Source of the DNA: an uncultured Planctomycetales bacterium
GTDB lineage: Bacteria > Omnitrophota > Gorgyraeia > Zapsychrales > CAYJUK01
DNA: 61,246 nt
Direction: 5' to 3'
NCBI GenBank assembly: GCA_964373335.1
Contig: CAYJUK010000001.1
Span: 719 to 61,964, forward strand
A program made the position numbers and the translations under genes. Positions within the stretch are counted from its first letter, which is position 1, and each line of letters starts with the position of its first letter. Below are positions 24,682 to 58,780 of this stretch, one piece after another. The notes beneath the pieces are model-generated. The model saw only the letters and a program-made list of their open reading frames with translations, was not told the DNA's origin and made no database searches.

Positions 24682-24682
24682 G

Positions 24683-25882: not shown

Positions 25883-25915
25883 GGAGTTTGTTAAAGCGAT
25901 TTTTTAACAAACTCC
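25883..25915 (+). terminator. perfect 13-bp hairpin (GGAGTTTGTTAAA-gcgattt-TTTAACAAACTCC) downstream of pseC
   Basis: Arms at 25883-25895 and 25903-25915. No clean downstream T-tract, so it could be an attenuator, an RNA-stability element or a weak terminator. Confidence 0.4.
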
Positions 25916-25943
25916 TGCCGTGTAATTTTAATTTGCCCTGTAC

Positions 25944-27149: not shown

Positions 27150-27271
27150 TAGGGCAATGAGTTGTGTGATCCGACAGCATCCAAGGCCACGGGTTTTACC
27201 CGTTTAGTGTATACGGTACCCCGCCAACAGCGAAGCGGCGAAGTGTAGGTAACCCGGTATTTAGGGAAGGC

Positions 27272-28024: not shown

Positions 28025-28099
28025 TGAGTTCAATGTCAAACTCTTGTCAGATAACCCGAGAGTTCATTGAGCAATGATCTTGAGGACGGATGTGAGTTG

Positions 28100-29572: not shown

Positions 29573-29581
29573 GGGGATTTC

Positions 29582-40688: not shown

Positions 40689-40755
40689 AGAAACGTGGTA
40701 TTATCCCTCGTTTTTCTGGGATCAAAGAAATTTTTAATATTGCGAACTTAATGAA

Positions 40756-41586
40756 ATGAGAGGGATAGAGTTGACAACGAACAGTCAAGCGAGTCTTAAA
40801 GAGCGATTGAAGAAAGGAGAGGTTGTTTTAGGAACTTGGGGGACTCTTCCTTCGGCTTCGGTGATGAATGTCCTCGGCCTCAGTGGTTTGGATTTTGTGA
40901 TCATTGATATGGAACACGGGCCTATTGATATAGGACAGGCAGAACAGATGGTGCAAACTTTAGAGGTCAGTGGAACAGTCCCTATTATTCGTGTCTCTAC
41001 CAACGATCCGTCATTAATCCTAAGGGCCCTGGATATTGGTGCCCAGGGAGTTCAGATCCCCCATATCTCAACGGAAGAGGATGCCCGACTGGCTGTTCGC
41101 AGTGCTAAATATGCCCCGGAAGGAGAGCGGGGATTCACACCATTCACTCGAGCTGGGCAGTATGGATTAGCCGCGGAAGGATATGCGGAAAAGGCCAATG
41201 AACAGACAATGGTGATTTTGAATGTCGAGGGGGTAAAAGGATTACATAATCTTAAAGAAATCCTTAAGGTGAATGATATTGATGTTGTTTTCATCGGGCC
41301 GTATGATCTGTCTCAATCTTTAGGCAAAACCGGACAGGTAGAAGATCCTAAGATCGTAGATTATATCCGTTCCAGTGTGCAATTGATGAAAAGTCAGGGG
41401 GTGGCGTGCGGTTCTTTTGCGGGGAATGGGGAATTTCTTAAAATCCTCATGGATTGCGGAGTACAGTATATTACTTTTTCCGTCGATTCTGCGGTGATGA
41501 TGAAGGCCTATCAGGATATTCTCTCTCAATTTCATATGATGAAGAAAGGATCTAGGCGTGGACAATCGATTCCCAACAGAACTTGA
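40756..41586 (+). CDS. HpcH/HpaI-family class II (pyruvate-dependent) aldolase
   Basis: VLGTWGTLPSASVMNVLGLSGLDFVIIDMEHGP, then GAQGVQIPHISTEEDA and FIGPYDLS. Confidence 0.8.
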   Translation: MRGIELTTNSQASLKERLKKGEVVLGTWGTLPSASVMNVLGLSGLDFVIIDMEHGPIDIGQAEQMVQTLEVSGTVPIIRVSTNDPSLILRALDIGAQGVQIPHISTEEDARLAVRSAKYAPEGERGFTPFTRAGQYGLAAEGYAEKANEQTMVILNVEGVKGLHNLKEILKVNDIDVVFIGPYDLSQSLGKTGQVEDPKIVDYIRSSVQLMKSQGVACGSFAGNGEFLKILMDCGVQYITFSVDSAVMMKAYQDILSQFHMMKKGSRRGQSIPNRT

Positions 41587-43282
41587 AATCTTAGATTGTA
41601 CCATTCGGGATGGCGGGTATTTGAACCAATGGCAGTTCGATAAGAAGCTGGTCAAAGAACTCTACCGGAATCTTTCCCGCACTGGAGTGGATATCATCGA
41701 GATTGGGCTGCGAAATATTCAAAAAAAGGACTGCGGCCTATGGTATTCCACCCCGGAAGAATTGATCAATGAACTCTTTCAAGATTGTTCCGGAGCCGCT
41801 CTGGCCTTGCTGATTGATGAAGCTCGGTCTGACTTGTCTTGTATCCCTGAGGCTAAGGAAAGTTTGGTCAGGTTATACCGTATCGCCTGTCATAAAAACA
41901 GGGTTCTGGAAACTATCCATTTGTGCGAAGCGATTAAGGCCAAGGGATATAGGACTTCGTTACAGTTGATGGGTATTGTCGGTTATTCGGAAAAGGATTT
42001 TGAATCGATTATCAAGCCTGTTGCCCAGTCGTCCGTAGATTATATTTATTTTGCCGATAGTTATGGTTCCCTTTTTCCTCCCGACATTAAAAGATGTATC
42101 CAATGGTTAAGGCCAACCGGGAAAAAGATCGGATTTCACCCCCATAATAACCTGCAATTGGCCTTTGCAAATACCCTGGAGGCTATCAATAACGGTATTG
42201 ATATCGTTGATGGAACAGTCAATGGGATGGGTCGGGGGGCAGGCAATCTCCCTTTAGAGGTTTTGATAATCTATTTAGAAAAAACACTCAATCATAGAAA
42301 ATATAACTCACTTCCGATCCTGGACTTGATCGACCGGTATTTTAAGGCTTTACGCGTTGAATTTCAGTGGGGTTATAGTCTCCCGTATATGTTATCGGGG
42401 ATTTCTGAGGTTCATCCTGATTATGCCAAGACGCTTATTGATCAGTATCAATATAGCGTTGATGAGATGGTGAAGATTTTGGATATGATTAAAGATCTCA
42501 ACCCCATTGGCTTTAATAAAGAGTTATTAGATCGGGTGATCAGCAGTGGGTTTATCAGACCTATGGATATTCAGACAGAGCGGGGACATAATATTCTTGA
42601 AATAGAGAATCTTTTTAAAAAGCATCCGGTAAGGCATAAAGATCGTCATACGGGAAGAGACTTTTTAATCTTGGCCAATGGGCCCAGCCTCAAAGAGCAC
42701 AAGGATGAAATAGATGAGTTCATAAAGATTTATGATCCCATCGTGATGGGGGCGAATTACCTGGCAGGATTATTTAAACCCCATTATCATGCCTTCAGTA
42801 ATAAAAAGAGATTCATGACCTACGTAGATCAGGTGGATGAGCAGTCTCAGCTTTTGCTTTCTTGCATCTTTGATGAAGAATTCATCCGGGATTATACAAA
42901 AAGGAAATACGAGACGATCGTGCATTTGAACCGTTTTTCCGACAATTTTGAGATCGTTAACGATGTCATAACCTCAAACTGTAGGACGATTTCTATTCTC
43001 CTGATTGGGGTGGCCATCATGATGGGAGCCAAAAGGATTTTTATCGCTGGGATGGACGGATACAAAAGTCATGAGGATTTTATCTTGAACAATCTCCATT
43101 TTTATCAAGAGACTGCTGAGACGAAAAATTTCAAAGCCCTGCTGGAATTGCACAATTGGAATGAGAGGTTGTTGAGCAGCATCAATGCTTATCTTTTAGC
43201 GCGGAATAAAGAAGGCCTGAGCATTATTACACCAACAAGTCATAAGTATTTCTATAATAGCATTTATAACCTGCAAAGGTAG
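41558..43282 (+). CDS. HMGL-like (pyruvate carboxyltransferase/aldolase TIM-barrel) domain fused to a DUF115/Maf-like domain
   Basis: N-terminal ILDCTIRDGGY..FHPHNNLQLAFANTLEA..VDGTVNGMGRGAGN. The C-terminal ~230 aa, FLILANGPSLKEH..MGANY..IFIAGMDGY, resemble the MptE/motility-accessory-factor domain. GTG start with a 29-nt overlap. Confidence 0.68.
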   Translation: MDNRFPTELEILDCTIRDGGYLNQWQFDKKLVKELYRNLSRTGVDIIEIGLRNIQKKDCGLWYSTPEELINELFQDCSGAALALLIDEARSDLSCIPEAKESLVRLYRIACHKNRVLETIHLCEAIKAKGYRTSLQLMGIVGYSEKDFESIIKPVAQSSVDYIYFADSYGSLFPPDIKRCIQWLRPTGKKIGFHPHNNLQLAFANTLEAINNGIDIVDGTVNGMGRGAGNLPLEVLIIYLEKTLNHRKYNSLPILDLIDRYFKALRVEFQWGYSLPYMLSGISEVHPDYAKTLIDQYQYSVDEMVKILDMIKDLNPIGFNKELLDRVISSGFIRPMDIQTERGHNILEIENLFKKHPVRHKDRHTGRDFLILANGPSLKEHKDEIDEFIKIYDPIVMGANYLAGLFKPHYHAFSNKKRFMTYVDQVDEQSQLLLSCIFDEEFIRDYTKRKYETIVHLNRFSDNFEIVNDVITSNCRTISILLIGVAIMMGAKRIFIAGMDGYKSHEDFILNNLHFYQETAETKNFKALLELHNWNERLLSSINAYLLARNKEGLSIITPTSHKYFYNSIYNLQR

Positions 43283-43340
43283 GAAGGTAGGGAAGAGGAA
43301 GACCATTCTTCGCTGTCCAACTCCTTTTCTGGGAATCATA

Positions 43341-44075
43341 ATGAGAGTGATCGGTGTTATACCAGCGCGTTTAAAATCTACCCGGCTTCCCAATAAGGCC
43401 CTGGTGGATATTGAAGGGCTCCCCATGATTGTCCATGTCTTTAAACGAGCGGCGTTGTCTCAAGTCCTCGATGATGTCTTTGTCGCCACGGATAGTCCGG
43501 AGATTTATCAAACAGTCGTTCGTTTTGGCGGGAAGGCGGTTATGACAGCTTCTCACCATCAAACTGGTACGGATAGAGTTGCAGAAGCGGTTTCGTCTTT
43601 AACAACAGATATTGTTGTTAACATTCAAGGGGATGAACCTTTATTGGTCCCAGAGCATATTGATCAGGTTGTTGAACCCCTCTTGAGGGATAAGAATATT
43701 CAGGTGGCTATTTTAGTGGCTCCTTTTTCGAGAAAAAATAGTCCTTCGGATATTAAGGCCGTTCTGGATTTAGACCATAATATATTATATTGTTCCCGGA
43801 CAGATCTCCCTAGCCAGGCCCGGAATCCGGTGGAAATGATGTGGAAGATGTGTTTCATCGTCCCCTTTCGAAAGGATTTTCTTCTTCAATATACTTCCTG
43901 GTCTCAGACACCTTTGGAAAAGATTGAATTGAATGAATATTTACGGATTTTGGAACATAGTCATAAAATTAAAGCGGTTTGTGTACAGAAGGCCCATATC
44001 AGCGTCGATACTCCTCAGGATCTTGAAGAAGTTAAAGAGATCATGAAACAGGATCCCATCAAGCCCATGTACTGA
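43341..44075 (+). CDS. KdsB-family 3-deoxy-ulosonic acid cytidylyltransferase
   Basis: VIGVIPARLKSTRLPNKALVDIEGLPMIVHV, HQTGTDRVAEA, VNIQGDEPL. Confidence 0.82.
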   Translation: MRVIGVIPARLKSTRLPNKALVDIEGLPMIVHVFKRAALSQVLDDVFVATDSPEIYQTVVRFGGKAVMTASHHQTGTDRVAEAVSSLTTDIVVNIQGDEPLLVPEHIDQVVEPLLRDKNIQVAILVAPFSRKNSPSDIKAVLDLDHNILYCSRTDLPSQARNPVEMMWKMCFIVPFRKDFLLQYTSWSQTPLEKIELNEYLRILEHSHKIKAVCVQKAHISVDTPQDLEEVKEIMKQDPIKPMY

Positions 44076-44132: not shown

Positions 44133-45956
44133 ATGATCATCCTTTCTAATATCCCGGGAGTTATTCTGAATTTCCTCCTTCATGGTTACCCTGTTAGCCA
44201 ATGGATCTATTTAGGGAAAAGTGATAAAGTTCTCTATAAATTAAAACGTTTTCTCCCTTCCCAGGCTCATTCCATTGATTATGCCCGTAAGCTCTATGAA
44301 TTAAGCGAAAAATGGAGAGATCAATATATCCGCTGGATCGATGAAATTTCTTTTTCCGGGCCGATCAGTAAAGAATGGCTTTTCTCTGTCCCCGCGGTTA
44401 AAAATCCCTATATTAGCAATGTTTATCTTTATCTTTGCTACTTCTTTGTATTGGAAGAATATCTTCGGGAAGATAAAAAAATAGATCTGGTGATCGTTGA
44501 TTCTCCTGCCTTAAGTTTCCTGTTGAAAAAGTATTTTTCCAAACGCATCCGATCCCATCCTATCAATGCTTTCCTGGGAAGCAGAATTTATCTGGAAGTC
44601 TTTTTCCGGACTATTTTAAGATTCTTTCGGCATGCCATTGATTTTGCCAGGGCTTGGGTTGCGGCCAAGAGGGTCTTTAAAGACAGATGCAGAAAGCTAC
44701 TCCGAGATAAGAAGATTATACTTATTAGAAATTATATTACGGTTCAGTATTTAAAATCCAAAACGGAAGAATTTGATCTACGGTACTTCCCTAAACTTTA
44801 TTCTTATCTTCAAGAACATAATAGTGTTCCTGTCTTTCTCCCATTGGCTGTGGTGAGGAATTATCGTAAATTATATAAGAAGGTGAGGGAGAGTAAACAA
44901 CTGATTATTTTTCCAGAGGAATTTTATAAAGTCCGGGATTATTTCAATACTTTTTCCAGTCCTCTGCGTGCCTTATGTTATCCATTAAAAATCCCGGAGT
45001 TATCGGGTTACTCTTTCGCTCCTCTGATTCGGGAAGAATATTATGCTAACCTGACTCAATCTGGCATCCTTAATGCCATTCTTCTATCCTGTTTTGGCAG
45101 ACGGTTAAAACAAAGCGCCATTGATCTTAAAGGGATCATCAATTGGGCGGAATTTCAAGCCTTTGAAAAGGGATTGGTGAGTGGATTAAGAGAGGCGTTC
45201 CCTGCGGCCAAGTTCATCGGCAGTCAGCCCTTTTTGACTGCTCCTAATCATATGTCACTGATCCCTAGTCAACAAGAGAGATTATTAAGATTAATTCCCG
45301 ACCGTCTTCTGGTATTAGGCCCTCTCGGGAAAAGACTAATCAACGACTATACTGTTAATGTGAATGTTGATTTTACTCCTGCATTTCGTTATCAATCCGT
45401 TTTCAAGTCTTTTTCTTCCAGAAACGGTGAGCATAAGAATATTTTGGTCTTGATGGGATATAGTTTGACCAATGCGGTCCATACCATGAAGATCTTGTGT
45501 CAGTGTCGAGAATATTTACAGGACTATCAATCCGTATATATTAAACTTCATCCAGTTGCGAATTATAACAAAGAGATTTTGATGAAGGAGACTATTATGG
45601 CCTTGCCTCATAATTTTAAATTTGTTGAAGGGGCCCTGGAGAGTTATCTGGAAAAGATTTCTTTGAGTATTTGTGGAGGTTCTGGAACGGCTGTTGAGGT
45701 TGTTTTGAGAGGTATTCCCGTCATCCTTATAGCTGATAGTAACACATTGACTATGAATTATCTCTCTTATAAGCGGGATCCCTATTTATGGAGGTTGTGT
45801 TTTTCTCAAGATGAGGTCAAGGAAGCTCTGCAATACTTTCGCAAAATCCTCTGTGAGCAGCCAGAACAATTAAGTCAAAAGGCTTTGGAGTTCAGAAGGT
45901 TATATTTTGCTGAACCGGATAATCGTTATTGGGAAAATTATTTGATTCGGGAATGA
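44133..45956 (+). CDS. uncharacterised 607-aa putative GT-B transferase with an HP signature
   Basis: C-terminal NILVLMGYSL.., VYIKLHPVANY, then ISLSICGGSGTAVEVVLRGIPVILI. Same layout as the product of 32611. Confidence 0.58.
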   Translation: MIILSNIPGVILNFLLHGYPVSQWIYLGKSDKVLYKLKRFLPSQAHSIDYARKLYELSEKWRDQYIRWIDEISFSGPISKEWLFSVPAVKNPYISNVYLYLCYFFVLEEYLREDKKIDLVIVDSPALSFLLKKYFSKRIRSHPINAFLGSRIYLEVFFRTILRFFRHAIDFARAWVAAKRVFKDRCRKLLRDKKIILIRNYITVQYLKSKTEEFDLRYFPKLYSYLQEHNSVPVFLPLAVVRNYRKLYKKVRESKQLIIFPEEFYKVRDYFNTFSSPLRALCYPLKIPELSGYSFAPLIREEYYANLTQSGILNAILLSCFGRRLKQSAIDLKGIINWAEFQAFEKGLVSGLREAFPAAKFIGSQPFLTAPNHMSLIPSQQERLLRLIPDRLLVLGPLGKRLINDYTVNVNVDFTPAFRYQSVFKSFSSRNGEHKNILVLMGYSLTNAVHTMKILCQCREYLQDYQSVYIKLHPVANYNKEILMKETIMALPHNFKFVEGALESYLEKISLSICGGSGTAVEVVLRGIPVILIADSNTLTMNYLSYKRDPYLWRLCFSQDEVKEALQYFRKILCEQPEQLSQKALEFRRLYFAEPDNRYWENYLIRE

Positions 45957-46101: not shown

Positions 46102-47658
46102 ATGAGTTTAAAAATACTGCTTATTTACCCCAATTTTAGAGGCATGAACATGCTGCCGCCAGGAATTTCCCTTCTCTCCGCTGTTCTTAAGCAGAGAGGT
46201 TTTCGGGTGAAACTTTTTGATACCACATATTATGATTCCATCGAAGGCAAGTCTCTGGATTCGGATGCCTCTAAAAGTGACCGACTCATGGCCCGTCCAT
46301 TTAAGATGCCCAATGAGATCTCCTATACACGAACAGATTGCTTTGAAGATTTTGAGAAAGAAGTATTAGATTTCCAACCGGATCTATTGGCCTTATCCTG
46401 CACGGAAGATATGTTCTCACTGGGGATTAAATTGTTAAAGAAGGCCAGATATTTAAATATCCTGACCATTGCGGGTGGTGTTTTTCCTACCTTTGCCTCT
46501 AAGCTTGTCCTCAGTTTCCCAGAGGTAGATATCGTTTGTAAAGGAGAAGGAGAGGATGCCTTAAGCACTTTGTGCGAACGTCTTCAGAAGGGCGAACAAT
46601 TCGATGATGTCAGTAATTTATGGATTAAAAAGAATGATGGAACTATCAAGATTAACCCCACCCGAATGGTGGACATGGATTCTAATCCCCTGATAGATAT
46701 GTCAATCTTTGAGGAGGCACGATTCTACCGCCCCATGGGGGGGAAAGTTTACCGGATGTTTCCGGTAGAGACTCATCGGGGTTGTCCCTATACATGTGCC
46801 TTTTGCAATTCTCCTTCCCAAATGGAGTTATATAAGAAAGAGGAGGGGAAGTCCTATCTTCGCCGGAAATCCTTTAAGAATATGTATCAGGAGCTTCTCT
46901 TTTATAAAAACGTAATGAAGGCAGAGTATCTCTATTTTTGGGCTGACACTTTTTTCTCCTGGAAGAAGGGAGAATTTGAAGAATTTTCAGAGATGTATAA
47001 AGATATTCGCCTCCCCTTTTGGTGCCAGACCAGGATCGAAACCGTTACCCCGGAACGTTTGATTTTATTAAAAGGGATTGGATGCGCGCGGATATCATTT
47101 GGGATAGAACATGGGAACGAACAGTTCCGCAGACAATGGTTAAAACGGCCGGTTTCAAATGAATTAATGATTAAAAATTTTAAGTTTGTCAGAGACAGCG
47201 GCATCCCATTCAGTGTGAATAATATTGTTGGGTTTCCTCATGAGACCTATGACTTGGCTTTTGATACGGTCCGTTTTAATCGGTTCATTGAAGCCGATGA
47301 CCGGAACGCGTATCATTTTACTCCTTTTCACGGCACACCCTTGCGAGATGAATGTGAACGATCCGGTTTTATTAAATCAGAAGACATTTGCCAGTCGTTT
47401 GTTATCGGAGATGCAATCTTAGATATGCCTCAATTTCCTAAAAAGACTGTACAAAGACTGATTAAAACTTTTAATATGTATGTGAAATTTCCCGAATCCC
47501 GATGGTCAGAAATTAAAAAGGCTGAAGAAGATTCTGCGGAGGGGAAAAAAATTTATCAGGCTTTAAAAGTAGAATTTAAGGATCGTTTTTTTAATATCCG
47601 CGATGAAAGTTTTGAAGCCGCTGCTATGGAAAAAGTTCTTACGGCCCCAATGAACTAA
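46102..47658 (+). CDS. cobalamin-binding-domain radical SAM enzyme (class B), paralogue of 16418
   Basis: LKILLIYPN..LFDTTYY, CKGEGEDAL, and CxxxCxxC in HRGCPYTCAFCNS. Confidence 0.8.
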   Translation: MSLKILLIYPNFRGMNMLPPGISLLSAVLKQRGFRVKLFDTTYYDSIEGKSLDSDASKSDRLMARPFKMPNEISYTRTDCFEDFEKEVLDFQPDLLALSCTEDMFSLGIKLLKKARYLNILTIAGGVFPTFASKLVLSFPEVDIVCKGEGEDALSTLCERLQKGEQFDDVSNLWIKKNDGTIKINPTRMVDMDSNPLIDMSIFEEARFYRPMGGKVYRMFPVETHRGCPYTCAFCNSPSQMELYKKEEGKSYLRRKSFKNMYQELLFYKNVMKAEYLYFWADTFFSWKKGEFEEFSEMYKDIRLPFWCQTRIETVTPERLILLKGIGCARISFGIEHGNEQFRRQWLKRPVSNELMIKNFKFVRDSGIPFSVNNIVGFPHETYDLAFDTVRFNRFIEADDRNAYHFTPFHGTPLRDECERSGFIKSEDICQSFVIGDAILDMPQFPKKTVQRLIKTFNMYVKFPESRWSEIKKAEEDSAEGKKIYQALKVEFKDRFFNIRDESFEAAAMEKVLTAPMN

Positions 47659-48043: not shown

Positions 48044-49027
48044 ATGTTATATAACAATCATTCCATAAGTAGGTTAGATAAATTTTTTGCTGAGAATTAT
48101 GTCCGGATATGGGGTGAACGCAAAGGTTGTCTGTCGACTTTCCTTTTTCATGGGGTCTTTCGTGACAAAAATGAATGCCGTAATGAATTACTGGATATTC
48201 AACAGGGTATTACCGTAAAGCACCTTGAGACCTTTATTGAATATTTTCTTGATCAGCAATATTTTTTTGTCAGACAGAACGATATCTTAAATGGATTGGA
48301 TCCTCAAAAGAAATATGCTCTTATGACCTTTGATGACGGTTATTATAATAATATCTATGCCATCGACATTTTAAAAAAATTTCAAGTGCCTGCTATTTTT
48401 TTTATATCCACTAACCATATTCTTGAGCAGAAAACCTTTTGGTGGGATGTCATCTCTAGAGAACGTTGGAAACAAGGCGCTAGCCGCGAAAAGATTATCC
48501 GTGAACAAAATTTTTTAAAAATGAAAAAAAATGATGAGATCGAAAATTACATTATGGTTCAGTTTGGACATCATGCCTTAAGGCCTATTTGCGATGTGGA
48601 TAGGCCTTTAACCGTTAATGAACTGAAAAATTTATCGCGTCAACCTTTTGTTGAAATAGGTAATCATACCAGCAATCACGCCATTTTACCGAACTATTCA
48701 TACGACGCAGCAAAAGATGAAATGCTGCAGGCACAAAATCATCTTCAAGAAATAACCGGGATCAAGCCCGCAGCCGTTTCTTATCCCAATGGGAGCTTTT
48801 CAGATGAAACCGTTACGGCTGCCAAAGAAGTGGGATTTAAAATAGGGATAACAACATGGGAAGGAAAGAATTACCTGCCTCTTAACTTTAATAACAATGA
48901 ATTGTTTTGTTTGAAACGCTTTACTCTTTGGGGAGACGGCCGTTTCGTTGGTGAATGTGATCGGACCAGATCGGATTTTCAATTAAAGAGTTCTTTAAAA
49001 GAGCTCTTAGGGAAAGTTAAAAAATAA
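48044..49027 (+). CDS. polysaccharide deacetylase (NodB homology, CE4)
   Basis: Motif 1 MTFDDGY, motif 2 GNHTSNH (HxxxH), and YPNGSF. Confidence 0.82.
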   Translation: MLYNNHSISRLDKFFAENYVRIWGERKGCLSTFLFHGVFRDKNECRNELLDIQQGITVKHLETFIEYFLDQQYFFVRQNDILNGLDPQKKYALMTFDDGYYNNIYAIDILKKFQVPAIFFISTNHILEQKTFWWDVISRERWKQGASREKIIREQNFLKMKKNDEIENYIMVQFGHHALRPICDVDRPLTVNELKNLSRQPFVEIGNHTSNHAILPNYSYDAAKDEMLQAQNHLQEITGIKPAAVSYPNGSFSDETVTAAKEVGFKIGITTWEGKNYLPLNFNNNELFCLKRFTLWGDGRFVGECDRTRSDFQLKSSLKELLGKVKK

Positions 49028-49030
49028 ACT

Positions 49031-49885
49031 ATGCTTAAAGTTCTTCCGGCTAAGAAAGAGAATTTTGATAAGGTTTATCCGCTTTTAATAAAGATTCCTT
49101 CACCGATATCCATTCCCAAGGAAACCTGGCGTAATTTATTTAACCAACAATGGGATGGTCAAGTTGAACCGTTGGGGTATGTTTTGATGAAGGAAAATGA
49201 GATAGTCGGTTATATCGGTTTAATTACGGTGCAAAGAGAAATTCAGGGGCAACGGCATGAAATCATGGATTTGACAAGCTGGACGGTTAAAAAACAATAC
49301 GGCGTTCATGCGATCCAAATGCTTCTTCCCTTTATCCAGGACCAAAAAAGAACCTTGAGGTGTTTTACTCCCGCCAAGAGTATTGATGTAATTTTTCGCA
49401 GATTCGGATTTCAAGAACTGAATGCCTTTTTGCAAATCATTCCGTTTTGGGCCATATCATTCGGTCAAAATGATTATGAAATCTCGTTTGATATCGAAGG
49501 GAATCGGCAATTATTGACAAAAGAGGATTGGCAAATCTATTGCGATCATCGCAAATTCTCTAGCGAACATTTTATTATTAAAAAAGACCAGACCTATTGC
49601 TATGTGATCGCCAAACGGATTTTTAAGAAAAAATTGCCGTTTTTACATATCCATTATATGAGCGATAAGAAACAGTTTGCACAGGGAATTCAAAAGTTTG
49701 TAGGGACAATTTGTTGTCGCTCAAGGACGCTGGGTTTAATGATTTTCGAGCATTGTCTGGGGCAGGAAAGATTGCCAGGAGTCATAAAGATGAAAATGCG
49801 TGCTAAACCTTTGTTTCGATCGGTTTACTTAAAACCGGAAGATATCGATTCTTTGTATTCTGAATTTTTTGTTTTAAACTTTTAA
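49031..49885 (+). CDS. hypothetical protein, possibly a GNAT-fold acyltransferase
   Basis: Long ORF in tight spacing with its neighbours. The N-terminal half (EIVGYIGLITVQ..TSWTVKKQYGVHAIQ..FRRFGFQEL) loosely resembles GNAT strands, but no clean motif A is present. Confidence 0.5.
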   Translation: MLKVLPAKKENFDKVYPLLIKIPSPISIPKETWRNLFNQQWDGQVEPLGYVLMKENEIVGYIGLITVQREIQGQRHEIMDLTSWTVKKQYGVHAIQMLLPFIQDQKRTLRCFTPAKSIDVIFRRFGFQELNAFLQIIPFWAISFGQNDYEISFDIEGNRQLLTKEDWQIYCDHRKFSSEHFIIKKDQTYCYVIAKRIFKKKLPFLHIHYMSDKKQFAQGIQKFVGTICCRSRTLGLMIFEHCLGQERLPGVIKMKMRAKPLFRSVYLKPEDIDSLYSEFFVLNF

Positions 49886-49896
49886 AGTCCATCCTC

Positions 49897-50871
49897 ATGA
49901 ATCAATTTAATTCCATGGGTGACAACGAGTCTGAACTGATCAATGGCTATCCCATATTCAAACGACTTGTGGAAAGAGTCTTTTTAAAATCTCCTATGCA
50001 AAGGAAATATCTGAGTCATCACCTTGCCCAAAGAGACATCACGTTCTTCAGGCGTGCCGAGGGATTTGCCGGAAGATTCATAATCTATCTTGATGACATT
50101 GGCCTCTCGATCGACCAGGCCGTTGATGCCTATCTTGAGGTATGCAGAGATATGCTCACCAGCCAGATGAGATTTAAAAAAACACAAAAATATTCGTGTC
50201 GCAGCGCCAACGAAGCCAATGGTCTTGTATATTCGTCGACTGACAAAATGACGAACTATATGATCGGCCTGCTTTTGTCTCAGTTTATGTGGCCGAATCA
50301 TTATGAAATGTATGATTTTTTTATCGAGCAAAGTCAAAAGCTCATCAACATTAAGACAGTCCTCGAAATTGGCCCCGGGCATGGTCTTTATCTTGCCGAG
50401 TCCGTTTCTCTCTTTCCCGATGCCCAATTTGACGCCATTGATATCAGTCCGACTTCGAAGAAGCTCTGTGAGGCCCTTGTTTTTCATCTAACCGGAAACA
50501 TCCGATGCAAAGTTCAGCTTAAAGACATTAATCAGCTTGAGGATTGCGGTCCCTATGATTATATTGTCATGGGGGAGGTTTTAGAACATCTCGATGACCC
50601 GAGATCTGCCTTGAGGAAAATCCATAATTTATTAAATGAAGACAGCCATTTTTTTATAACAACCTGCGCCAATGCCCCAGCCATTGATCACGTTTATTTG
50701 TATGATAGTGTTGGGCATATCCAACGCGATATCCGTATGAGCGGTTTTGCACCTCTCTTCGAGCTGGCATTACCCGTTGAAGATGTCCCAGAGGATCAGT
50801 GGGAAGAACAGAAGGTCGAAGTCAACTATGCGGCCATGTATAAGAAGTCTAAGATGACCGATCAAAACTGA
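49897..50871 (+). CDS. class I SAM-dependent methyltransferase with an N-terminal extension
   Basis: VLEIGPGHGLYLAE (motif I), AIDIS, YDYIVMGEVLEHLDDP. Confidence 0.8.
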   Translation: MNQFNSMGDNESELINGYPIFKRLVERVFLKSPMQRKYLSHHLAQRDITFFRRAEGFAGRFIIYLDDIGLSIDQAVDAYLEVCRDMLTSQMRFKKTQKYSCRSANEANGLVYSSTDKMTNYMIGLLLSQFMWPNHYEMYDFFIEQSQKLINIKTVLEIGPGHGLYLAESVSLFPDAQFDAIDISPTSKKLCEALVFHLTGNIRCKVQLKDINQLEDCGPYDYIVMGEVLEHLDDPRSALRKIHNLLNEDSHFFITTCANAPAIDHVYLYDSVGHIQRDIRMSGFAPLFELALPVEDVPEDQWEEQKVEVNYAAMYKKSKMTDQN

Positions 50872-50932
50872 TGTTGACCGCTGAGCAGGGGAATCCGTAT
50901 TTAGAAATGAACGGCTTTTAAGGAAAGCATTG

Positions 50933-52897
50933 ATGATCAACGATCAAGTTGTGAGTAAAAATAACTTATCTATGGATCAGGGCTTGTTCAAAAAAGGCAT
51001 TTTGATCAGATCTGTTGAAAATAAACTTTTGCAGTTATTTTCAGAAGGAAAACTCAATGGGACTGTCCATACGTGTGTGGGCCAGGAATTTTCCGCTTTG
51101 GCTTTTGCCGGTCAATTATCCAACAAAGATATTGTTTTCTCAAATCATAGGTGTCACGGACACTATATATCGTTTACTGGTGATTATGAAGGTCTGTTGG
51201 CCGAATTGATGGGTAAAAGAAGCGGTGTGTGTAGTGGTATCGGAGGGAGCCAGCATCTTTGTAAAGACAATTTTTACTCGAATGGAATTCAGGGCGGGAT
51301 TGTTCCCGTTGCTGCCGGAATGGCCTTAGCCGCAAAACTCAATGGAAACCGGAACATTGTTGTCGTTTATATCGGAGAGGGAATGTTGGGAGAAGGGGTT
51401 GTCTACGAAACTTTCAATATCATATCCAAGTGGGGTCTCCCTATTTTAATTGTGTGCGAGAACAATTATTATGCCCAATCAACGCCAATGAGGTTTAATT
51501 TAGCCGGTGATATTCTAAAACGCGCCGAGGCTTTTGGGATTCAGACGTATTATAACGACATCTGGAATACGGAAGGATTGATGCAGGCAGCCTGTCAGTC
51601 GATTTCATACGTGCGCGAATATCAAAAACCCGTTTTTCATTTAGTTGAGACTTATCGGCTTAATCCACATTCTAAGGGTGATGATGACCGCGACCCTGCT
51701 GAAATTAACCTTTTTAAAGAAAAAGATCCTATCAATATCTTTGCCAGAGAAAATAAACAATTATTTGAGAAAATCCAATTGGAGACAGAACATCAGGTCA
51801 ATGCAGCGGTTGAAAAGATATTGAAACAATCTGAATTAGATATCGGCGATTATTATGAACCATTGAAGGAAAGACCTCGGGATCCATGGGAATCCCTTGA
51901 AGAAATTGACTTTAGGCAAGTTGAGCTTATTAATGCTTTCTTTAAAGAACAAATGCAACGCAATCGTTCGATCATTTTTATCGGTGAAGATGTTTTATCT
52001 CCTTATGGTGGGGCCTTTAAGATTGCCCGAGATTTATCAGATTTGTTTCCTGATAGAGTTTTTTCAACGCCGATCAGTGAAGCAGCCATTATCGGAATTT
52101 CGAATGGGTTGGCCATAAAAGGTTTTCGACCCTTTACCGAGATCATGTTCGGTGATTTTATCACTCTGGGGATGGACCAAATTGTTAATCATGCGGCTAA
52201 ATTTTACGATATGTACAACAAGCAGGTAAAATGTCCCATTGTCATTAGAACGCCGATGGGAGGAAGACGCGGTTATGGGCCGACACATTCACAGACTCTG
52301 GATCGTTTTGTTACTGGTATCCCTAATGTGAAAACGATAGCTTTAAATACATTGACGAATCCTAAAATAATCTACCAGAATGTCTTGGAGAAAGAGGAAC
52401 ATCCTGTTATTGTGATTGAAAATAAACTTGACTATGGCAGCAAGATTGCCAAAAAGAAGCTTAAACATTACAGGTATGAAAAGACCACCGGGGATTATCC
52501 CGTTGTCAGGATCCGTCCCTTCCAAGCTGTTCCCAATGCAACTCTTCTTTGTTATGGCGGCATGGTTAACATTGTCCTTGATTGTTTAGAACCGTTATTT
52601 GTGAATTTTGAATTAAAATCTGAGGTGATCGTTTTAACGAAGATATCACCCATTGAATATTCTGAGATTATCGAATCCGTCAGAAAGACGAAAAGGTTAT
52701 ATGTCATTGAAGAAGGAACGATGGCTGGAGGTATTGGCAGTGAAGTGGTCGCTTCTGTAGCTGAGATTTTAACAGAATATGTTACGATAAAACGCATTGC
52801 CGCATTACCGGTTCCGATTCCATCGGTCAGGTCATTGGAGAATCAGGTCTTGCCTAATGTCGAGACAATTCTTCGTTCCATTGCAGAAACTTTATAG
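50933..52897 (+). CDS. 2-oxoacid dehydrogenase E1 component, fused alpha and beta subunits (TPP-dependent)
   Basis: Alpha part: GTVHTCVGQEF and the TPP motif YIGEGMLGEGVVYETFNIISKWGLPILIVCENN. Beta part: IFIGEDVLSPYGGAFKI..STPISEAAIIGISNGLA. The ATG at 50933 follows AAGGAAAG. Confidence 0.82.
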   Translation: MINDQVVSKNNLSMDQGLFKKGILIRSVENKLLQLFSEGKLNGTVHTCVGQEFSALAFAGQLSNKDIVFSNHRCHGHYISFTGDYEGLLAELMGKRSGVCSGIGGSQHLCKDNFYSNGIQGGIVPVAAGMALAAKLNGNRNIVVVYIGEGMLGEGVVYETFNIISKWGLPILIVCENNYYAQSTPMRFNLAGDILKRAEAFGIQTYYNDIWNTEGLMQAACQSISYVREYQKPVFHLVETYRLNPHSKGDDDRDPAEINLFKEKDPINIFARENKQLFEKIQLETEHQVNAAVEKILKQSELDIGDYYEPLKERPRDPWESLEEIDFRQVELINAFFKEQMQRNRSIIFIGEDVLSPYGGAFKIARDLSDLFPDRVFSTPISEAAIIGISNGLAIKGFRPFTEIMFGDFITLGMDQIVNHAAKFYDMYNKQVKCPIVIRTPMGGRRGYGPTHSQTLDRFVTGIPNVKTIALNTLTNPKIIYQNVLEKEEHPVIVIENKLDYGSKIAKKKLKHYRYEKTTGDYPVVRIRPFQAVPNATLLCYGGMVNIVLDCLEPLFVNFELKSEVIVLTKISPIEYSEIIESVRKTKRLYVIEEGTMAGGIGSEVVASVAEILTEYVTIKRIAALPVPIPSVRSLENQVLPNVETILRSIAETL

Positions 52898-52908
52898 AAG
52901 ATAGTTCC

Positions 52909-54111
52909 ATGAAACCTTTACAGTCAATAATTGTTCCCCATGAGATCGTCAATGATGAATTTGTGACAATTGTCCAATGTCATTTTAACAACGGGGACAG
53001 GATTAAAGAAGGAGATCCCCTCATCACCATTGAGACCTCAAAGATGGTCGAAGATCTTTATGCGGCATTTGGCGGTTATATTTATTATCTGTGCCAAGAA
53101 GGATCTGAAATCAAGATTGGCGAAGTCATTATAGAAATCTATGATCAGCCTCTTATTCAGAGGAGTGCTCTTACTCAAGAAACAGTGGAAAAAAGAGAAA
53201 CCTCTTTGCCGGAGGACGATGTTATTTTTTCTCAATCGGCCTTGCGGATGATCGAAGAACTTAAGATGAGTAAAGAGAAGTTTAAAGGTCGGACTTTTGT
53301 GAGTACAGAAGATGTCAGGTTTGTTCAACGTCAAATCAGCCAAAATCAGTTTGCCTGGCGGGGAGCTTCGGAATCAACCCATTCGACCGTCCCCGGCCTA
53401 AAGTCCGGGGACTGCTCAGGGTTGACACTGAGCGGCGCCGAAGTGTCAAATTTTGAAAGGATGACGGCGAGTCCCGATATCGAATTTTTAAAGATTAGTC
53501 CCATTAAGAAAAGGGAGATTGAAAATCTTAATGCTGTGCAATCATCGCATCTGAGTAACGTGGTGAGTATGCTCATTGATGTGACTTCTTTTATTGACAA
53601 GTTGAAGCGTGAGAGTAAATTTTTTAAAAATTCTTTACTTCTGATCGTGATTTCGAAATTGCCGGCGTTGTTGGAAGAGTATCCGGAATTTAACGCCTTC
53701 TATAAAGATGGGACAATAGGTTTTTATAAGAATATTGCAATAGGATTTGCCGTGAACTTAGGGGATGGATTGCGGGTCTTGAAGTTACCCGTTACGAACG
53801 AAAAAAGTATTGCCGAGATAGAAATAATGATTTTTGACATGATCAAACAATATCTTGACAAAAAGTTAACCCCTCAGGACTTGGCCAGGGTCACTTTTAC
53901 GGTCACCGACCTTTCGAATGAGGGCATTCATTTTTTTATCCCGCTTATACCCAAAGGCCAGTCCGCGATCTTAGGCATTTCTGCCATTGATGAGAAGCTG
54001 CAGCGTAGCATAGTATCGCTTTCTTTCGATCACCGTGTGACGGATGGCAAAAAAGCCAGCGAGTTTTTGCGAAAATTAAAGAAGAGAATCGAGGCTGACT
54101 CGGTTGGTTGA
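52909..54111 (+). CDS. lipoyl-domain acyltransferase (2-oxoacid dehydrogenase E2-like)
   Basis: N-terminal lipoyl/biotinyl-type domain with ITIETSKMVEDL. C-terminal catalytic domain with SFDHRVTDGKKASEF (DHRxxDG). Confidence 0.8.
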   Translation: MKPLQSIIVPHEIVNDEFVTIVQCHFNNGDRIKEGDPLITIETSKMVEDLYAAFGGYIYYLCQEGSEIKIGEVIIEIYDQPLIQRSALTQETVEKRETSLPEDDVIFSQSALRMIEELKMSKEKFKGRTFVSTEDVRFVQRQISQNQFAWRGASESTHSTVPGLKSGDCSGLTLSGAEVSNFERMTASPDIEFLKISPIKKREIENLNAVQSSHLSNVVSMLIDVTSFIDKLKRESKFFKNSLLLIVISKLPALLEEYPEFNAFYKDGTIGFYKNIAIGFAVNLGDGLRVLKLPVTNEKSIAEIEIMIFDMIKQYLDKKLTPQDLARVTFTVTDLSNEGIHFFIPLIPKGQSAILGISAIDEKLQRSIVSLSFDHRVTDGKKASEFLRKLKKRIEADSVG

Positions 54112-54178
54112 CTTAAGAAAGAAACAAAAAATGTGAGACCGTTCAGTTTTATTGATTCTTAAAAGGTGGAGATAAAAA

Positions 54179-54427
54179 ATGCAAGAGCAAATACGACAAA
54201 TCATGTGCCAAATTTTTCATGTTCCCTTTGGACACATCACAGATGAGACCAAAGTCGAGACGATTGAATCATGGGATTCCTTAAATCATATCAATCTGAT
54301 CTTGGCCTTAGAGCTGGAGTTTAGGACAACGTTCTCTCCAGAGGAAATGATCAAAATGGTCAGTTTTCAAGAGATTCTGGAAATTTTAAAACAAAAGACG
54401 CAGGCTTGTGAAATAAGAGAAAAATAA
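54179..54427 (+). CDS. acyl carrier protein
   Basis: 82 aa. WDSLNHINLILALE carries the DSL phosphopantetheine-attachment motif. GGTGGAG lies upstream of the ATG. Confidence 0.8.
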   Translation: MQEQIRQIMCQIFHVPFGHITDETKVETIESWDSLNHINLILALELEFRTTFSPEEMIKMVSFQEILEILKQKTQACEIREK

Positions 54428-56965: not shown

Positions 56966-58780
56966 GTGTTAAATGTGAATAGACAATTAGTTTCCGATTT
57001 AATCCGTGGACTAGGATTTTGTCTCCTGGTGATCCTGGGATTTTGCTATTCGATATTTGAGAGGGGGTTTGCCGAGTTACATATCCAGTTATCGTTCCTT
57101 GACTTTCCTATTTTTGTTGGGGAAATCTTTTTAGGAATTTGTCTCTTATTATTAATCTTTTTTTTTATTACCCAACCTAAAATAATTCACAAATGGCATT
57201 CCATTATTGTCATTTATCTGGCCTGGCTTCTCGGGAAGTCGTTTTTAGGTTATTTTGTGGATGGACCATTTGCCTTTCGCACCGCAGCCCTTTTTTATTA
57301 TCCACTGTTCTCTGTTATCGGATACTATTCTTATGATCGAAGATTCTTTACCACAAGATCAGTTGCGGTGATGCTGGTCATCTTAATTGGAGTTATCTTA
57401 ATAATGAAACCCATTGTTGTCCTCAGTTACTACCATTTTGTGTATCTGATCCTCCCATTTGTTCTGCTGCTTTCTTTGAGATCTTTAGGGCTGAAAATCA
57501 TCCTTTCTCTTCTTATTCTTTTATTATTTCCCTGGGATTTGTATCTCGGTGGAGCGAGGACCAGATTCATAGGCTTTATTATTTCTGGTATTTTTATCGC
57601 TGCTTACATTAGTTTCTCTTTCCTCAGAATAAAAAAAGCTTCCAGCCATTTTTTATTTCTAGGGATGGTCGGATTTCTATTTTTATTTCTTATGAGCCAA
57701 GCCTCATCCAATAAGATCAAATCTTTATATAAGATAAACAAATTATCCCAGATTTATCAGAAACAACAGAGGTTCATTGATGAAAAAGAAAAAGATTTTA
57801 TTTTTCGAGAAATTCCTGTCAAGCTTTACCGGAAGGAATCTGACAAGATCACCAAGGAAGAGTTTGAAGATTATGTTAAGAGAACCACTCTGAGGTCACT
57901 GAATTATCCCGATGATTATGTGGTGGGGCTTAAATCCATTAAGGAAGAACAGAAAAGTGAGACTGAAAAAGAATTAGAAAATATTATTCGAGACCTATTT
58001 TTATTAGTTAAGGATAAATTATCAGAAGCTGTTAGTAACCAGGATGATTTAAAGAAAGAAAGTGGTTTAACTCCGACACAGATTCGTTATAAGATTGAGA
58101 AAGATTTTGAGCCAGAAATTCAATTAGTCATTGAAGATGTGGGGAAAAGGCTGGATCAATTGGTAGAGTCAGAACAATCTTTATCACAAGAGATGCCACC
58201 ATCAACGGAGACACCACCTTCACCGGAGAATGACCCGGAATCTATAGATAAAGAGCATATTAAAAAGCAAGTTGAAATTAAACTGAGAAGTTATATGGAA
58301 TTATATTTAAATCGAGATGTGACCTGGAATAAACCTTGGCCGGTAGAAGTGGATTATGGGAATATTCTTTTTCGTTTATTTATGTGGAAAGATTTGATTG
58401 ATGAATTAATCAAGACTCAATCCTGGATGGGAATAAGCTTTGGCAAACCATTTCGATCAAAGAGTATCGAAATCCTGAGTATTGCCCAGGGGGAGTGGGC
58501 GAGTGTGGGATGGGTTGATATTCACAATTCTTTTTTGAATACCATATACCGTTCTGGAATTGTTGGTCTCATCCTTCTCGTTTTATTATTTGGGAAGATA
58601 TTCTTAATCATAAGAAAATTTATCACCGCAAGGTCATTAAAGGGGATTTTATTGTGTAGTATCCTGATTGATTTCTTGGTTTATGCCTGTTTTTTAAGTA
58701 CCTTAGAAATGCCTTATACATCAATTACATTTTGGAGTTTATTAGGGATGACCCTGGCTTATCAGAAGCAACTCGCATGA
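56966..58780 (+). CDS. O-antigen ligase/polymerase-like (Wzy_C-type) polytopic membrane protein with a long hydrophilic insert
   Basis: About 8 N-terminal TM helices, a ~230-aa charged, Pro-rich segment, then WVDIHNSFLNTIYRSGIVGL (HNxxLxxxxxxGxxG-like) and C-terminal TM helices. GTG start. Confidence 0.72.
   Translation: MLNVNRQLVSDLIRGLGFCLLVILGFCYSIFERGFAELHIQLSFLDFPIFVGEIFLGICLLLLIFFFITQPKIIHKWHSIIVIYLAWLLGKSFLGYFVDGPFAFRTAALFYYPLFSVIGYYSYDRRFFTTRSVAVMLVILIGVILIMKPIVVLSYYHFVYLILPFVLLLSLRSLGLKIILSLLILLLFPWDLYLGGARTRFIGFIISGIFIAAYISFSFLRIKKASSHFLFLGMVGFLFLFLMSQASSNKIKSLYKINKLSQIYQKQQRFIDEKEKDFIFREIPVKLYRKESDKITKEEFEDYVKRTTLRSLNYPDDYVVGLKSIKEEQKSETEKELENIIRDLFLLVKDKLSEAVSNQDDLKKESGLTPTQIRYKIEKDFEPEIQLVIEDVGKRLDQLVESEQSLSQEMPPSTETPPSPENDPESIDKEHIKKQVEIKLRSYMELYLNRDVTWNKPWPVEVDYGNILFRLFMWKDLIDELIKTQSWMGISFGKPFRSKSIEILSIAQGEWASVGWVDIHNSFLNTIYRSGIVGLILLVLLFGKIFLIIRKFITARSLKGILLCSILIDFLVYACFLSTLEMPYTSITFWSLLGMTLAYQKQLA

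Follow-up and report, generated by a model that had tools for sequence, protein, structure and literature searches.

Why would a bacterial surface-glycan locus carry the first two components of a 2-oxoacid dehydrogenase next to a private acyl carrier protein (ACP), a deacetylase and a methyltransferase (MT)? The question is raised by a DNA stretch of 61,246 nucleotides (the window) from an uncultured Planctomycetales bacterium (GenBank assembly GCA_964373335.1, contig CAYJUK010000001.1, positions 719 to 61,964). The window is a single plus-strand glycan locus throughout its 61 kb, and within it six open reading frames (ORFs) at 48044–54427 (+) form a compact cassette with intergenic gaps of 3, 11, 58, 11 and 67 nt:

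48044–49027, plus strand: CE4 (NodB-type) polysaccharide deacetylase, 327 aa (Pfam Polysacc_deac_1)
49031–49885, plus strand: protein with a double-GNAT fold, 284 aa, unnamed family (AlphaFold2 and Foldseek)
49897–50871, plus strand: class I S-adenosylmethionine (SAM)-dependent MT, 324 aa (Pfam Methyltransf_23/12/11)
50930–52897, plus strand: fused thiamine pyrophosphate (TPP)-dependent E1 alpha and beta, 655 aa, Qnc/Ren type (Pfam E1_dh, Transket_pyr, Transketolase_C)
52909–54111, plus strand: lipoyl E2, 400 aa (Pfam Biotin_lipoyl, 2-oxoacid_dh)
54179–54427, plus strand: ACP, 82 aa (NCBIfam ACP models, profile match to solved ACPs)

A preliminary description of the locus, made by reading the sequence, had named these six ORFs, their domains and several short motifs, and we found all of them where it had placed them, on the plus strand. 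Our answer, which we consider probable, is that the cassette combines a generator (MT, E1, E2 and ACP) with a swap pair (the CE4 and the GNAT-like protein), and that together they replace the N-acetyl group of an amino sugar by way of an acyl-ACP.

Family placement of the E1, E2 and acyl carrier protein

Pfam assigns the E1 to E1_dh (E = 6e-43), Transket_pyr and Transketolase_C. The protein keeps the TPP motif GEG...ENN (51374–51466), the sequence PHSKGD, a histidine that aligns with the 'GHS' of human E1alpha, and the glutamate of the beta-subunit motif SEAAI; its start may be the ATG at 50933 instead of the TTG at 50930. A translated search of a plasmid collection with the fused E1 as the query yielded three tiers of matches. 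At the top stands RenH, a fused E1 that is 48% identical over 642 residues and is encoded by the renieramycin plasmid of Candidatus Endohaliclona (MK748462, here L025, 7935–11103). The second tier is a Streptomyces set of ACP, E1alpha, E1beta and E2 beside nonribosomal peptide synthetase (NRPS) and MbtH genes (38% identity), with the lipoyl motif VETSKA. The third tier, at 33–35% identity, comprises E3-linked sets, namely C. difficile and Agrobacterium sets with lpdA (that of Agrobacterium also with lipA) and a Rhizobium catabolic set, and here the lipoyl motif is ETDKA or ETEKV. The first three residues of the E1 TPP motif, the Mg/TPP motif (51374–51382), read GEG in the window and in two sister loci (L001 and L002) and GDG in all other compared members where the motif was found, ACP-linked and E3-linked alike.

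In the E2, a lipoyl domain (aa 1–78; Biotin_lipoyl, E = 1.4e-10) is joined by a linker to an acyltransferase domain (aa 194–395; 2-oxoacid_dh, E = 9e-36). The lipoyl lysine is Lys45 in ETSKM (aa 42–46; 53032–53046), and His375 lies in DHRVTDG (aa 374–380; 54028–54048). An alignment of the E2 clade gives the signature ETSK (S44-K45 invariant), TFT(I/V)TDLS and DHRVT(E/D)GK, with both Lys45 and His375 invariant. RenI, encoded next to RenH, is 28% identical to the window E2 over its full length, and the two have ETSK, TVTDLS and DHRV in common. The Pfam domain E3_binding was undetected in the linker even at E = 1; the linker contains a conserved segment, FSxxAxxLI..F.G.DFV..DV, that on visual reading resembles a peripheral-subunit-binding domain.

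The preliminary description had also considered that ETSKM might be biotinylated. A biotin site is ruled out by the invariance of the S-K pair across the ACP-linked family, including RenI and the Streptomyces NRPS-linked E2, and by the context, the E3-linked E2s carrying ETDKA or ETEKV instead; ETSK reads as the lipoyl signature of the Qnc/Ren/Scl family and not as a biotin hybrid.

The ACP falls under the Pfam cut-off (PP-binding, E = 0.029) and is recognised by NCBIfam ACP models at E = 6.5e-7. A profile built from it and five homologues matches 47 solved ACPs (best 2lml, E = 1.5e-12), and its phosphopantetheine site, Ser34 in WDSL (54272–54283), is invariant in the alignment.

Neighbour-joining trees (200 bootstraps) separate the E3-linked from the ACP-linked sets with support of 100% for E1 and 66% for E2, and the glycan loci plus RenH/RenI from the rest with 98% and 66%, respectively. 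As a group of their own, the glycan-locus proteins receive 24% (E1) and 22% (E2). Because the glycan E1s alone are not monophyletic, RenH appears nested among them, and the tree suggests gene exchange between the glycan module and the C2-unit machinery of the alkaloid pathways. QncN/L and NapB/D are not among the sequences compared, and the tie to the biochemically proven Qnc members runs through RenH/RenI and published statements of homology. RenH and RenI have been assigned the role of Qcn7/Qcn9, a 'two-component transketolase-ACP' reaction that converts ketose sugars to a glycolyl C2 unit (PMC13249901), and the domain layout of QncN/QncL/QncM and of the homologous SclQ1-4, which are accompanied by the phosphopantetheinyl transferase (PPTase) SclP, has been summarised (PMC6335953). 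By these relationships, the E1, E2 and ACP of the window belong with the acyl-ACP generators of the Qnc/Ren/Scl kind and are not a housekeeping dehydrogenase. The kinship with the quinocarcin-type generator that the preliminary description had drawn is borne out by the identity to RenH, the motifs of RenI and the bootstrap support of the E1 tree.

Recurrence of the generator in glycan loci

A database search with the E2 returned 514 relatives at E = 1e-10 or better, and loci were opened across the identity range. Together with metagenome loci reached from the GNAT-like query and one locus (L031) reached from the MT query, this gave 13 independent loci including the window. Fused E1 precedes E2 in every one of the 13 (in L010, the E1 was called in fragments and is probably frameshifted), a carrier gene follows E2 directly in 13 of 13, and the flanks are glycan genes (glycosyltransferases, NeuB, epimerases, flippases) in all cases. 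E3 is absent from all 13 E1-E2-carrier loci, and neither the window nor any of the 12 sister loci contains an NRPS or polyketide synthase (PKS) gene. Sequence identity to the window ranges from 46 to 86% for E1 and from 29 to 73% for E2. At the diverged end, L031, from a Desulfovibrionaceae metagenome-assembled genome (MAG), still has contiguous MT, E1, E2 and ACP genes (45%, 46%, 29% and 33% identity), and the named relatives include Puia, Magnetococcales, Fibrobacterota, Candidatus Udaeobacter and Desulfovibrionaceae.

The carrier takes one of two forms. It is a free ACP in seven of the loci (the window, L001, L002, L011, L012, L023 and L031); in the other six (L003, L005, L008, L009, L010 and L024) the gene directly after E2 encodes a PPTase. 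The N-terminal ~70 residues of this PPTase protein were ACP-like in all five cases tested (hhalign probability 91.8%, E = 7e-7), with the conserved serine in register, and we read these proteins as fusions of an ACP with the enzyme that activates it. The E2s that are followed by such a fusion (the same six loci) all have a C-terminal, zinc-ribbon-like CxxC...CxxC tail, which is missing wherever the E2 precedes a free ACP (the window, L001, L002, L023 and L031; also RenI); no exception to this 6-versus-7 split was seen, and the tail may dock the fused carrier. Several of the fusions (L003, 11314–12111; L008, 11299–12030; L009, 11487–12209) end in a hydrophobic, probably membrane-spanning tail, which would place the acyl carrier at the membrane.

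The acyltransferases in these loci are of several kinds. Hexapeptide-repeat transferases accompany E1, E2 and carrier in L003, L005, L008, L009, L010, L024 and L031. In L003, a hexapeptide acyltransferase and a PIG-L-type deacetylase (E = 1.6e-5) take the place of the CE4/GNAT-like pair, a non-orthologous version of the same pairing of deacetylase and acyltransferase. In L023 (7058–13218), E1, E2 and ACP are followed directly by an MBOAT gene and by a 406-aa protein without a family, within a nonulosonic-acid locus (NeuB, PseH-like). This Dlt-like layout hints that MBOAT-type O-acylation of glycans, a reaction for which the donor is generally unproven, can draw on an acyl-ACP. Judging from the 13 loci, E1, E2 and ACP appear to form a unit dedicated to its carrier protein, with an acyltransferase partner that varies.

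The CE4 deacetylase and the GNAT-like protein

The CE4 scores 83 bits against Polysacc_deac_1 (cut-off 23; E = 2.1e-23) and matches solved CE4 deacetylases, e.g. 6dq3 at E = 8e-11. Its motifs TFDDG (aa 95–99; 48326–48340) and HTSNH (aa 208–212; 48665–48679) correspond to FDDG and NHxxxH positions that are conserved in homologues, in keeping with the Asp-His-His metal triad and the catalytic aspartate of the CE4 family. The protein lacks an N-terminal hydrophobic segment and is therefore probably cytoplasmic.

The 284-aa protein encoded 3 nt downstream belongs to no Pfam or NCBIfam family by its own sequence (best GNAT score, E = 0.096). Its AlphaFold2 model, built on a 16-sequence alignment, has a predicted local distance difference test score (pLDDT) of 78 and a predicted template modelling score of 0.60, and its top Foldseek matches are all tandem-GNAT proteins (2i00, 3n7z, Eis, 7q3a and 5kf1; E = 2.5e-10, probability 1.0, template modelling score about 0.55). 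Pfam does recognise GNAT domains in some of the 57 more distant family members that were sampled: 19 hit Acetyltransf_1 (best 1.6e-6) and 8 hit Acetyltransf_9. The tandem-GNAT matches and the Acetyltransf_1 members uphold the GNAT-like label that the protein had first been given. The family is large: an exhaustive profile search collected 1553 representative clusters, of which 340 reached E = 1e-30 or better. No match to a NodA-family N-acyltransferase was found in the cassette.

CE4 directly precedes the GNAT-like gene in all close relatives, and the nearest relatives of the pair, found in a genome-collection scan, come from a Candidatus Omnitrophota MAG. All six genes occur in identical order in the window, L001, L011 and L012 (60–86% identity), on unrelated contigs with different flanks, an arrangement far beyond chance; in L002, diverged versions of the CE4 and GNAT-like genes follow the ACP. 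In L012 (1264–2092) and L016 (1165–1993), the CE4 upstream of the GNAT-like gene is split into two short ORFs, for which a pseudogene or an assembly error is possible.

Other members of the GNAT-like family, too, keep company with carrier proteins or carrier loaders. Downstream of the CE4/GNAT-like pair, L017 and L019 have two asparagine-synthetase-like genes and a PP-binding protein of 95 aa. Among the more distant family members, that of L018 has an ACP 3 nt upstream. On pSymB of Sinorhizobium meliloti (L032; CP140934, 1140945–1146631), the GNAT-like gene is grouped with an AMP-forming ligase, a pyridoxal phosphate (PLP)-dependent decarboxylase, a PP-binding protein and, after a gap of ~1 kb, a polysaccharide deacetylase. 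On pPfer1 of Paludibaculum fermentans (L033), its neighbours are an FkbH-like loader of the HAD-IIIC type, a gene for a polysaccharide deacetylase and an MBOAT gene, with no separate carrier detected. In Rhizobium sp. T1470 (L034), a 104-aa carrier-like ORF (FDSMGL), the GNAT-like gene, a short-chain dehydrogenase/reductase (SDR) and an adenylating enzyme occur together. Because four loader chemistries and a recurring CE4 are found beside one family, which is the strongest evidence available on this point, the GNAT-like proteins probably take an acyl group from a carrier protein and place it on a freed sugar amine. The scheme of deacetylation followed by re-acylation put forward in the preliminary description gains support from the same contexts. 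The members in cultured bacteria (L032, L033 and L034) are currently annotated as 'hypothetical' or generic GNAT.

The methyltransferase

Pfam places the MT in Methyltransf_23/12/11 (E = 1e-14). Its gene is directly upstream of E1 in the window, L001, L002, L011, L012 and L031 (45% identity in the last). In L023, a homologous gene (31% identity, E = 1e-31) is found at a distance of 3 kb from the ACP, and loci in which the CE4/GNAT-like pair stands alone lack the MT. Gene neighbourhood thus ties the MT to the generator unit and not to the deacetylase pair, a change from the preliminary description, in which it could have tailored the re-acylated sugar. Candidate substrates are the hydroxyl of the acyl-ACP and the freed amine. 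Because of the genetic link to the generator, action on the ACP-bound acyl group is favoured.

The AlphaFold2 model (pLDDT 93) matches other structures through its Rossmann core only, and the Foldseek hits include C-, N- and O-methyltransferases, among them NodS (3ofk), CNMT and BioC. The N-terminal domain (aa 13–146, ~135 aa) is all-helical, family-specific and without a structural match. In the family alignment, six cysteines and histidines outside the SAM site are invariant (C83, H135, H162, H231, C257 and H265); together with the helical domain, they are possible elements of a metal site or a carrier-docking surface.

Proposed mechanism

From the above, the following sequence of events can be proposed. 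E1 would form a C2 unit bound to TPP; the precedent of the family suggests dihydroxyethyl-TPP derived by cleavage of a ketose phosphate, with hydroxypyruvate or pyruvate as possible donors too. In this respect, we depart from the 2-oxoacid decarboxylation of the preliminary description, since family precedent points to ketose phosphate cleavage instead. The unit would then move oxidatively onto the lipoyl group of Lys45 of E2, whose catalytic domain (His375) would hand the acyl group to the phosphopantetheine arm on Ser34 of the ACP, and not to coenzyme A (CoA), giving glycolyl-S-ACP. An E3 encoded elsewhere would re-oxidise the dihydrolipoyl arm, and lipoylation and ACP activation would likewise be provided in trans. 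The MT possibly methylates the acyl group, converting glycolyl to methoxyacetyl, which is the weakest inference of the scheme. Meanwhile, the CE4 would free, in the cytoplasm, the amine of an N-acetylated amino sugar that is nucleotide-linked or lipid-linked, with legionaminic acid, pseudaminic acid or a third ulosonate as candidates, and the GNAT-like enzyme would re-acylate this amine from the acyl-ACP.

The individual parts differ in strength. That E1, E2 and ACP act as an acyl-ACP generator is very likely. As to the swap, we lean towards the CE4/GNAT-like pair performing it with the cassette ACP. By analogy with the alkaloid pathways, a glycolyl-type acyl group is the likeliest, about as probable as all other acyl groups taken together, and a nonulosonic acid is a rather doubtful acceptor. 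The sequences themselves show the domains, the catalytic motifs, the conserved gene order, the families of E1 and E2 and the association with a carrier protein; we infer the identity of the acyl group, its donor, the acceptor sugar, the role of the MT and the use of the cassette ACP by the GNAT-like enzyme. In a broader and tentative version of the model, a portable MT-E1-E2-ACP unit would supply glycolyl- or methoxyacetyl-S-ACP across phyla to interchangeable transferases (double-GNAT with CE4, hexapeptide-repeat, MBOAT), and the tetrahydroisoquinoline C2 machinery would be an offshoot of this glycan module, because RenH nests inside the glycan clade.

Several points weigh against this scheme. 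Every mechanistic step is predicted from sequence and context, not from biochemistry. Support in the E2 tree is weak (66%), the function of RenH/RenI is itself assigned by homology, the donor substrate of an E1 at about 47–48% identity could differ, and its best curated-model matches are pyruvate dehydrogenase E1 models. In the alignment of CE4 homologues, SYPNG replaces RPPYG (the arginine of motif 3), and no LxH (the histidine of motif 5) is recognisable. CE4 enzymes usually act on N-acetylhexosamine residues of polymers, and we know of no CE4 enzyme that acts on a nonulosonic acid. The fold search with the MT model does not separate O-, N- or C-methylation. The window itself has no PPTase, E3 or lipoate ligase among its ORFs of at least 150 aa. 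Finally, the CE4/GNAT-like pair occurs without E1, E2 and ACP within 10 kb in L007, L015, L017 and L019, and its link to the generator is therefore facultative. The earlier statement that neither an E3 nor a CoA-dependent enzyme is present stands for E3 within this ORF size range; for CoA-dependent enzymes it stands within the cassette only, as PglD-like and PseH-like acetyltransferases are encoded elsewhere in the window.

Alternative explanations

The generator could instead make acetyl-ACP from pyruvate, i.e. perform ordinary pyruvate dehydrogenase (PDH) chemistry with ACP as the acceptor, and supply acetyl groups reserved for the O- or N-acetylation of the glycan, not an unusual acyl group. 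The curated models that match E1 best are indeed those of PDH E1 alpha and beta (TIGR03182 at E = 1e-60 and NF006667 at E = 1e-54, two hits that fall under the cut-off), the alpha subunit is matched best, among solved structures, by human PDH E1, and the hexapeptide and MBOAT partners in sister loci belong to families that typically O-acetylate glycans. However, the window cassette would gain nothing from taking off an acetyl group only to put it back, a dedicated MT has no obvious role on acetyl, and acetyl-CoA is universally available, so that a four-gene generator conserved across phyla is hard to justify. In addition, the E1 groups with RenH and the NRPS-linked set and not with the E3-linked pyruvate and acetoin complexes (100% bootstrap). 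We regard an acetyl-ACP generator as unlikely.

The two modules might also be mere neighbours, with the acyl-ACP serving another transferase and the CE4/GNAT-like pair drawing on acyl-CoA, another carrier or, like Fem-type enzymes, an aminoacyl-tRNA. This would suit the four loci in which the pair lacks E1, E2 and ACP (L007, L015, L017 and L019), the eight loci in which E1, E2 and ACP occur with other transferases, and the double-GNAT fold, which is common to Fem and Eis enzymes that use other donors. It sits poorly with six contiguous genes (gaps of 3–67 nt) that keep the same order on four unrelated contigs, and with the lack of any other acyltransferase in the cassette. Moreover, two of the pairs without E1 and E2 (L017 and L019) have another carrier with its own loader, which points to carrier dependence as a property of the family. 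All in all, independent modules seem slightly less likely still than an acetyl-ACP generator.

In a third scenario, E1 would add a C2 branch directly to a keto-sugar, and E2 and ACP would not be carriers for N-acylation at all. YerE and AviB1/B2 are TPP enzymes that act in this way in branched-sugar pathways, C-branched deoxysugars are known to be built by TPP enzymes, and several genes for sugar dehydratases and aminotransferases lie in the locus. Against it stand a lipoyl E2 with an intact catalytic histidine and a carrier in 13 of 13 loci, and a PPTase in six, none of which would be needed for C-branching, so that we give this scenario very little weight. A housekeeping or catabolic 2-oxoacid or acetoin dehydrogenase that came to lie in a glycan locus by chance would fit the domain composition of E1 and E2, but the missing E3, the non-canonical lipoyl motif, the ever-adjacent ACP, the constant glycan flanks and an identity of 33–35% to E3-linked sets make it practically negligible.

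The surrounding glycan locus

Beyond the cassette, the window encodes several further pathways, all on the plus strand:

17–11303, plus strand: legionaminic-acid-type set (DegT, PglD-like, NeuB, hydrolysing 2-epimerase, CBS-nucleotidyltransferase, GFO oxidoreductase, CMP-transferase, HisF/HisH pair, WbuX amidotransferase)
14688–21531, plus strand: 2-aminoethylphosphonate genes
23677–30613, plus strand: pseudaminic-acid set
39630–44075, plus strand: third CMP-ulosonate-like set (LdpA-like Fe-S protein, HpcH aldolase, HMGL-like/MptE-like fusion, KdsB-like cytidylyltransferase)
46102–47658, plus strand: B12-binding radical SAM protein, doubtful cassette member (Pfam B12-binding, Radical_SAM)

The legionaminic and pseudaminic acid pathways mentioned in the preliminary description are thus present. 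No E3, lipoate ligase or PPTase was found among the window ORFs of at least 150 aa, nor is a Pyr_redox protein encoded in the window; the PglD-like and PseH-like acetyltransferases lie outside the cassette, and promoter and terminator scans scored no better than shuffled sequence.

The radical SAM gene at 46102–47658, once suggested as a further tailoring partner, is set apart from the cassette by a 385-nt gap. None of L001, L002, L011 and L012 keeps it together with the cassette, and the radical SAM proteins of L005 and L024 are not its orthologues; the suggestion is not upheld. It is one of three B12-binding radical SAM genes in the window (11586–13256, 16418–18187 and 46102–47658), which are close to the phosphonate genes. 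The latter comprise a fusion of phosphoenolpyruvate (PEP) mutase and nucleotidyltransferase (14688–16349), a phosphonopyruvate-decarboxylase-like gene (19162–20292), an aminotransferase (20389–21531) and a CDP-alcohol phosphatidyltransferase (13278–14039). The combination of three radical SAM genes with phosphonate genes suggests methylated phosphonate decorations.

In the third CMP-sugar pathway (39630–44075), an HpcH/HpaI-type aldolase is accompanied by an HMGL-like aldolase fused to an MptE/Maf-like domain and by a KdsB-like match (E = 4e-79). The block recurs in L002 (1–4131) at 58–72% identity and has no obvious described counterpart. The phosphoglycerate-dehydrogenase-like, HAD and epimerase genes at 35499–38769 may feed this pathway. 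The preliminary description had instead let the phosphoglycerate-dehydrogenase-like and HAD genes (35.5–38.8 kb) supply hydroxypyruvate to E1; no counterpart of them occurs near E1, E2 and ACP in the other 12 loci, and they more likely serve the adjoining aldolase/KdsB-like pathway, a block conserved in L002.

Large proteins of 600–700 aa with little or no family assignment are encoded at 21528–23636, 30620–32593, 32611–34590, 44133–45956 and 56966–58780. The one at 30620 is a 'PFTS motif' polysaccharide protein (TIGR04417), that at 44133 is a weak match to TIGR04326 (Leptospira O-antigen-associated), and the other three match nothing. They are candidate transferases or polymerases for unusual sugars.

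Significance and comparison with known systems

In Tannerella, where N-glycolyl legionaminic acid is suspected, the genetic basis of unusual N-acyl groups on nonulosonic acids is largely unknown (PMC5378307). The same is true for bacterial nonulosonic acids and other amino sugars in general, and the cassette offers a concrete set of enzymes with a predicted product. It would carry TPP/lipoyl/ACP chemistry beyond the few alkaloid pathways that alone are known to use it, into glycan loci of Bacteroidota, Verrucomicrobiota, Fibrobacterota, Desulfobacterota, Pseudomonadota and candidate phyla, and it singles out a large double-GNAT family without a name, whose members are probably sugar acyltransferases that depend on a carrier protein. 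These observations suggest that acyl carrier proteins, and not only acyl-CoAs, are common donors for the decoration of surface glycans. This matters when antigens are predicted, in glycoengineering, and when genes of polysaccharide loci are annotated as 'pyruvate dehydrogenase'.

No NCBIfam or Pfam model specifically names the cassette proteins, and in the full-text literature we found no description of E1, E2 and ACP in glycan, O-antigen, nonulosonic-acid or Leptospira rfb contexts. The C2-generator chemistry and the NodB-type swap logic each have precedents. For their combination, the glycan context, the built-in MT, the interchangeable acyltransferases and the phylum-wide spread, we found none.

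The closest known systems are the makers of glycolyl-S-ACP for tetrahydroisoquinoline and related NRPS products (QncN/QncL/QncM, NapB/NapD, SclQ1-4 with SclP, and RenH/RenI). The cassette has in common with them the PDH-type E1 domains, a single-lipoyl E2 with a DHR site, a dedicated ACP, the ETSK motif and the lack of an E3 in the cluster. Its E1 is a fusion of alpha and beta exactly as in RenH, whereas Qnc fuses E1beta to E2 and Scl keeps all parts separate; the sister glycan loci with a PPTase of their own resemble scl with SclP. In contrast to these pathways, the cassette lies in a glycan context without NRPS or PKS genes, its acyl-ACP is predicted to feed GNAT-like, hexapeptide or MBOAT enzymes instead of a condensation domain, a dedicated MT is part of the generator unit, and both donor and product are predictions. 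The pyruvate, branched-chain 2-oxoacid and acetoin dehydrogenases share with the cassette the folds of E1 and E2, the TPP motif, the lipoyl swinging arm and the His/Asp residues with which E2 catalyses its reaction. They differ from it at 33–35% identity, in having an E3 and ETDKA instead of ETSK, and in using CoA where the cassette is predicted to use ACP; the cassette E2 also has no Pfam E3-binding domain.

The logic of the swap recalls Nod factor synthesis, in which the deacetylase NodB, the N-acyltransferase NodA and the N-methyltransferase NodS act together with an acyl-ACP supply by NodF/NodE. Both systems pair N-deacetylation by a CE4/NodB-type enzyme with a different acyl group from a dedicated acyl-ACP and with a SAM-dependent MT in the operon, and NodS (3ofk) is among the structural matches of the cassette MT. 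Unlike the Nod system, the cassette has no NodA, its acyltransferase is of the double-GNAT kind, its ACP would be loaded with a C2 unit by a TPP/lipoyl machine instead of fatty-acid synthase enzymes, and its MT is genetically tied to the ACP generator and not to the deacetylase. Carrier-dependent acylation of a surface glycopolymer is also the principle of the Dlt system, in which DltA loads the carrier DltC and the MBOAT protein DltB moves the acyl group to a cell-envelope polymer; L023, with its MBOAT gene directly after E1, E2 and ACP, comes nearest to it. Here the loader is a TPP/lipoyl pair and not an adenylating enzyme, and the window would use a cytoplasmic CE4 and a GNAT-like protein, without an MBOAT.

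With regard to the predicted end product, an N-glycolyl amino sugar, the cassette is comparable to CMAH, which forms N-glycolylneuraminic acid (Neu5Gc), and NamH, which forms N-glycolylmuramic acid. Both enzymes hydroxylate an existing N-acetyl group using O2, whereas the cassette would remove the acetyl group and install a pre-formed glycolyl group with no requirement for oxygen. If the broader version of the model is true, the portable generator would give bacteria access to N- and O-glycolyl surface sugars, N-glycolyl nonulosonic acids among them, without a need for oxygen, and such sugars would parallel Neu5Gc although the chemistry that makes them is entirely different.

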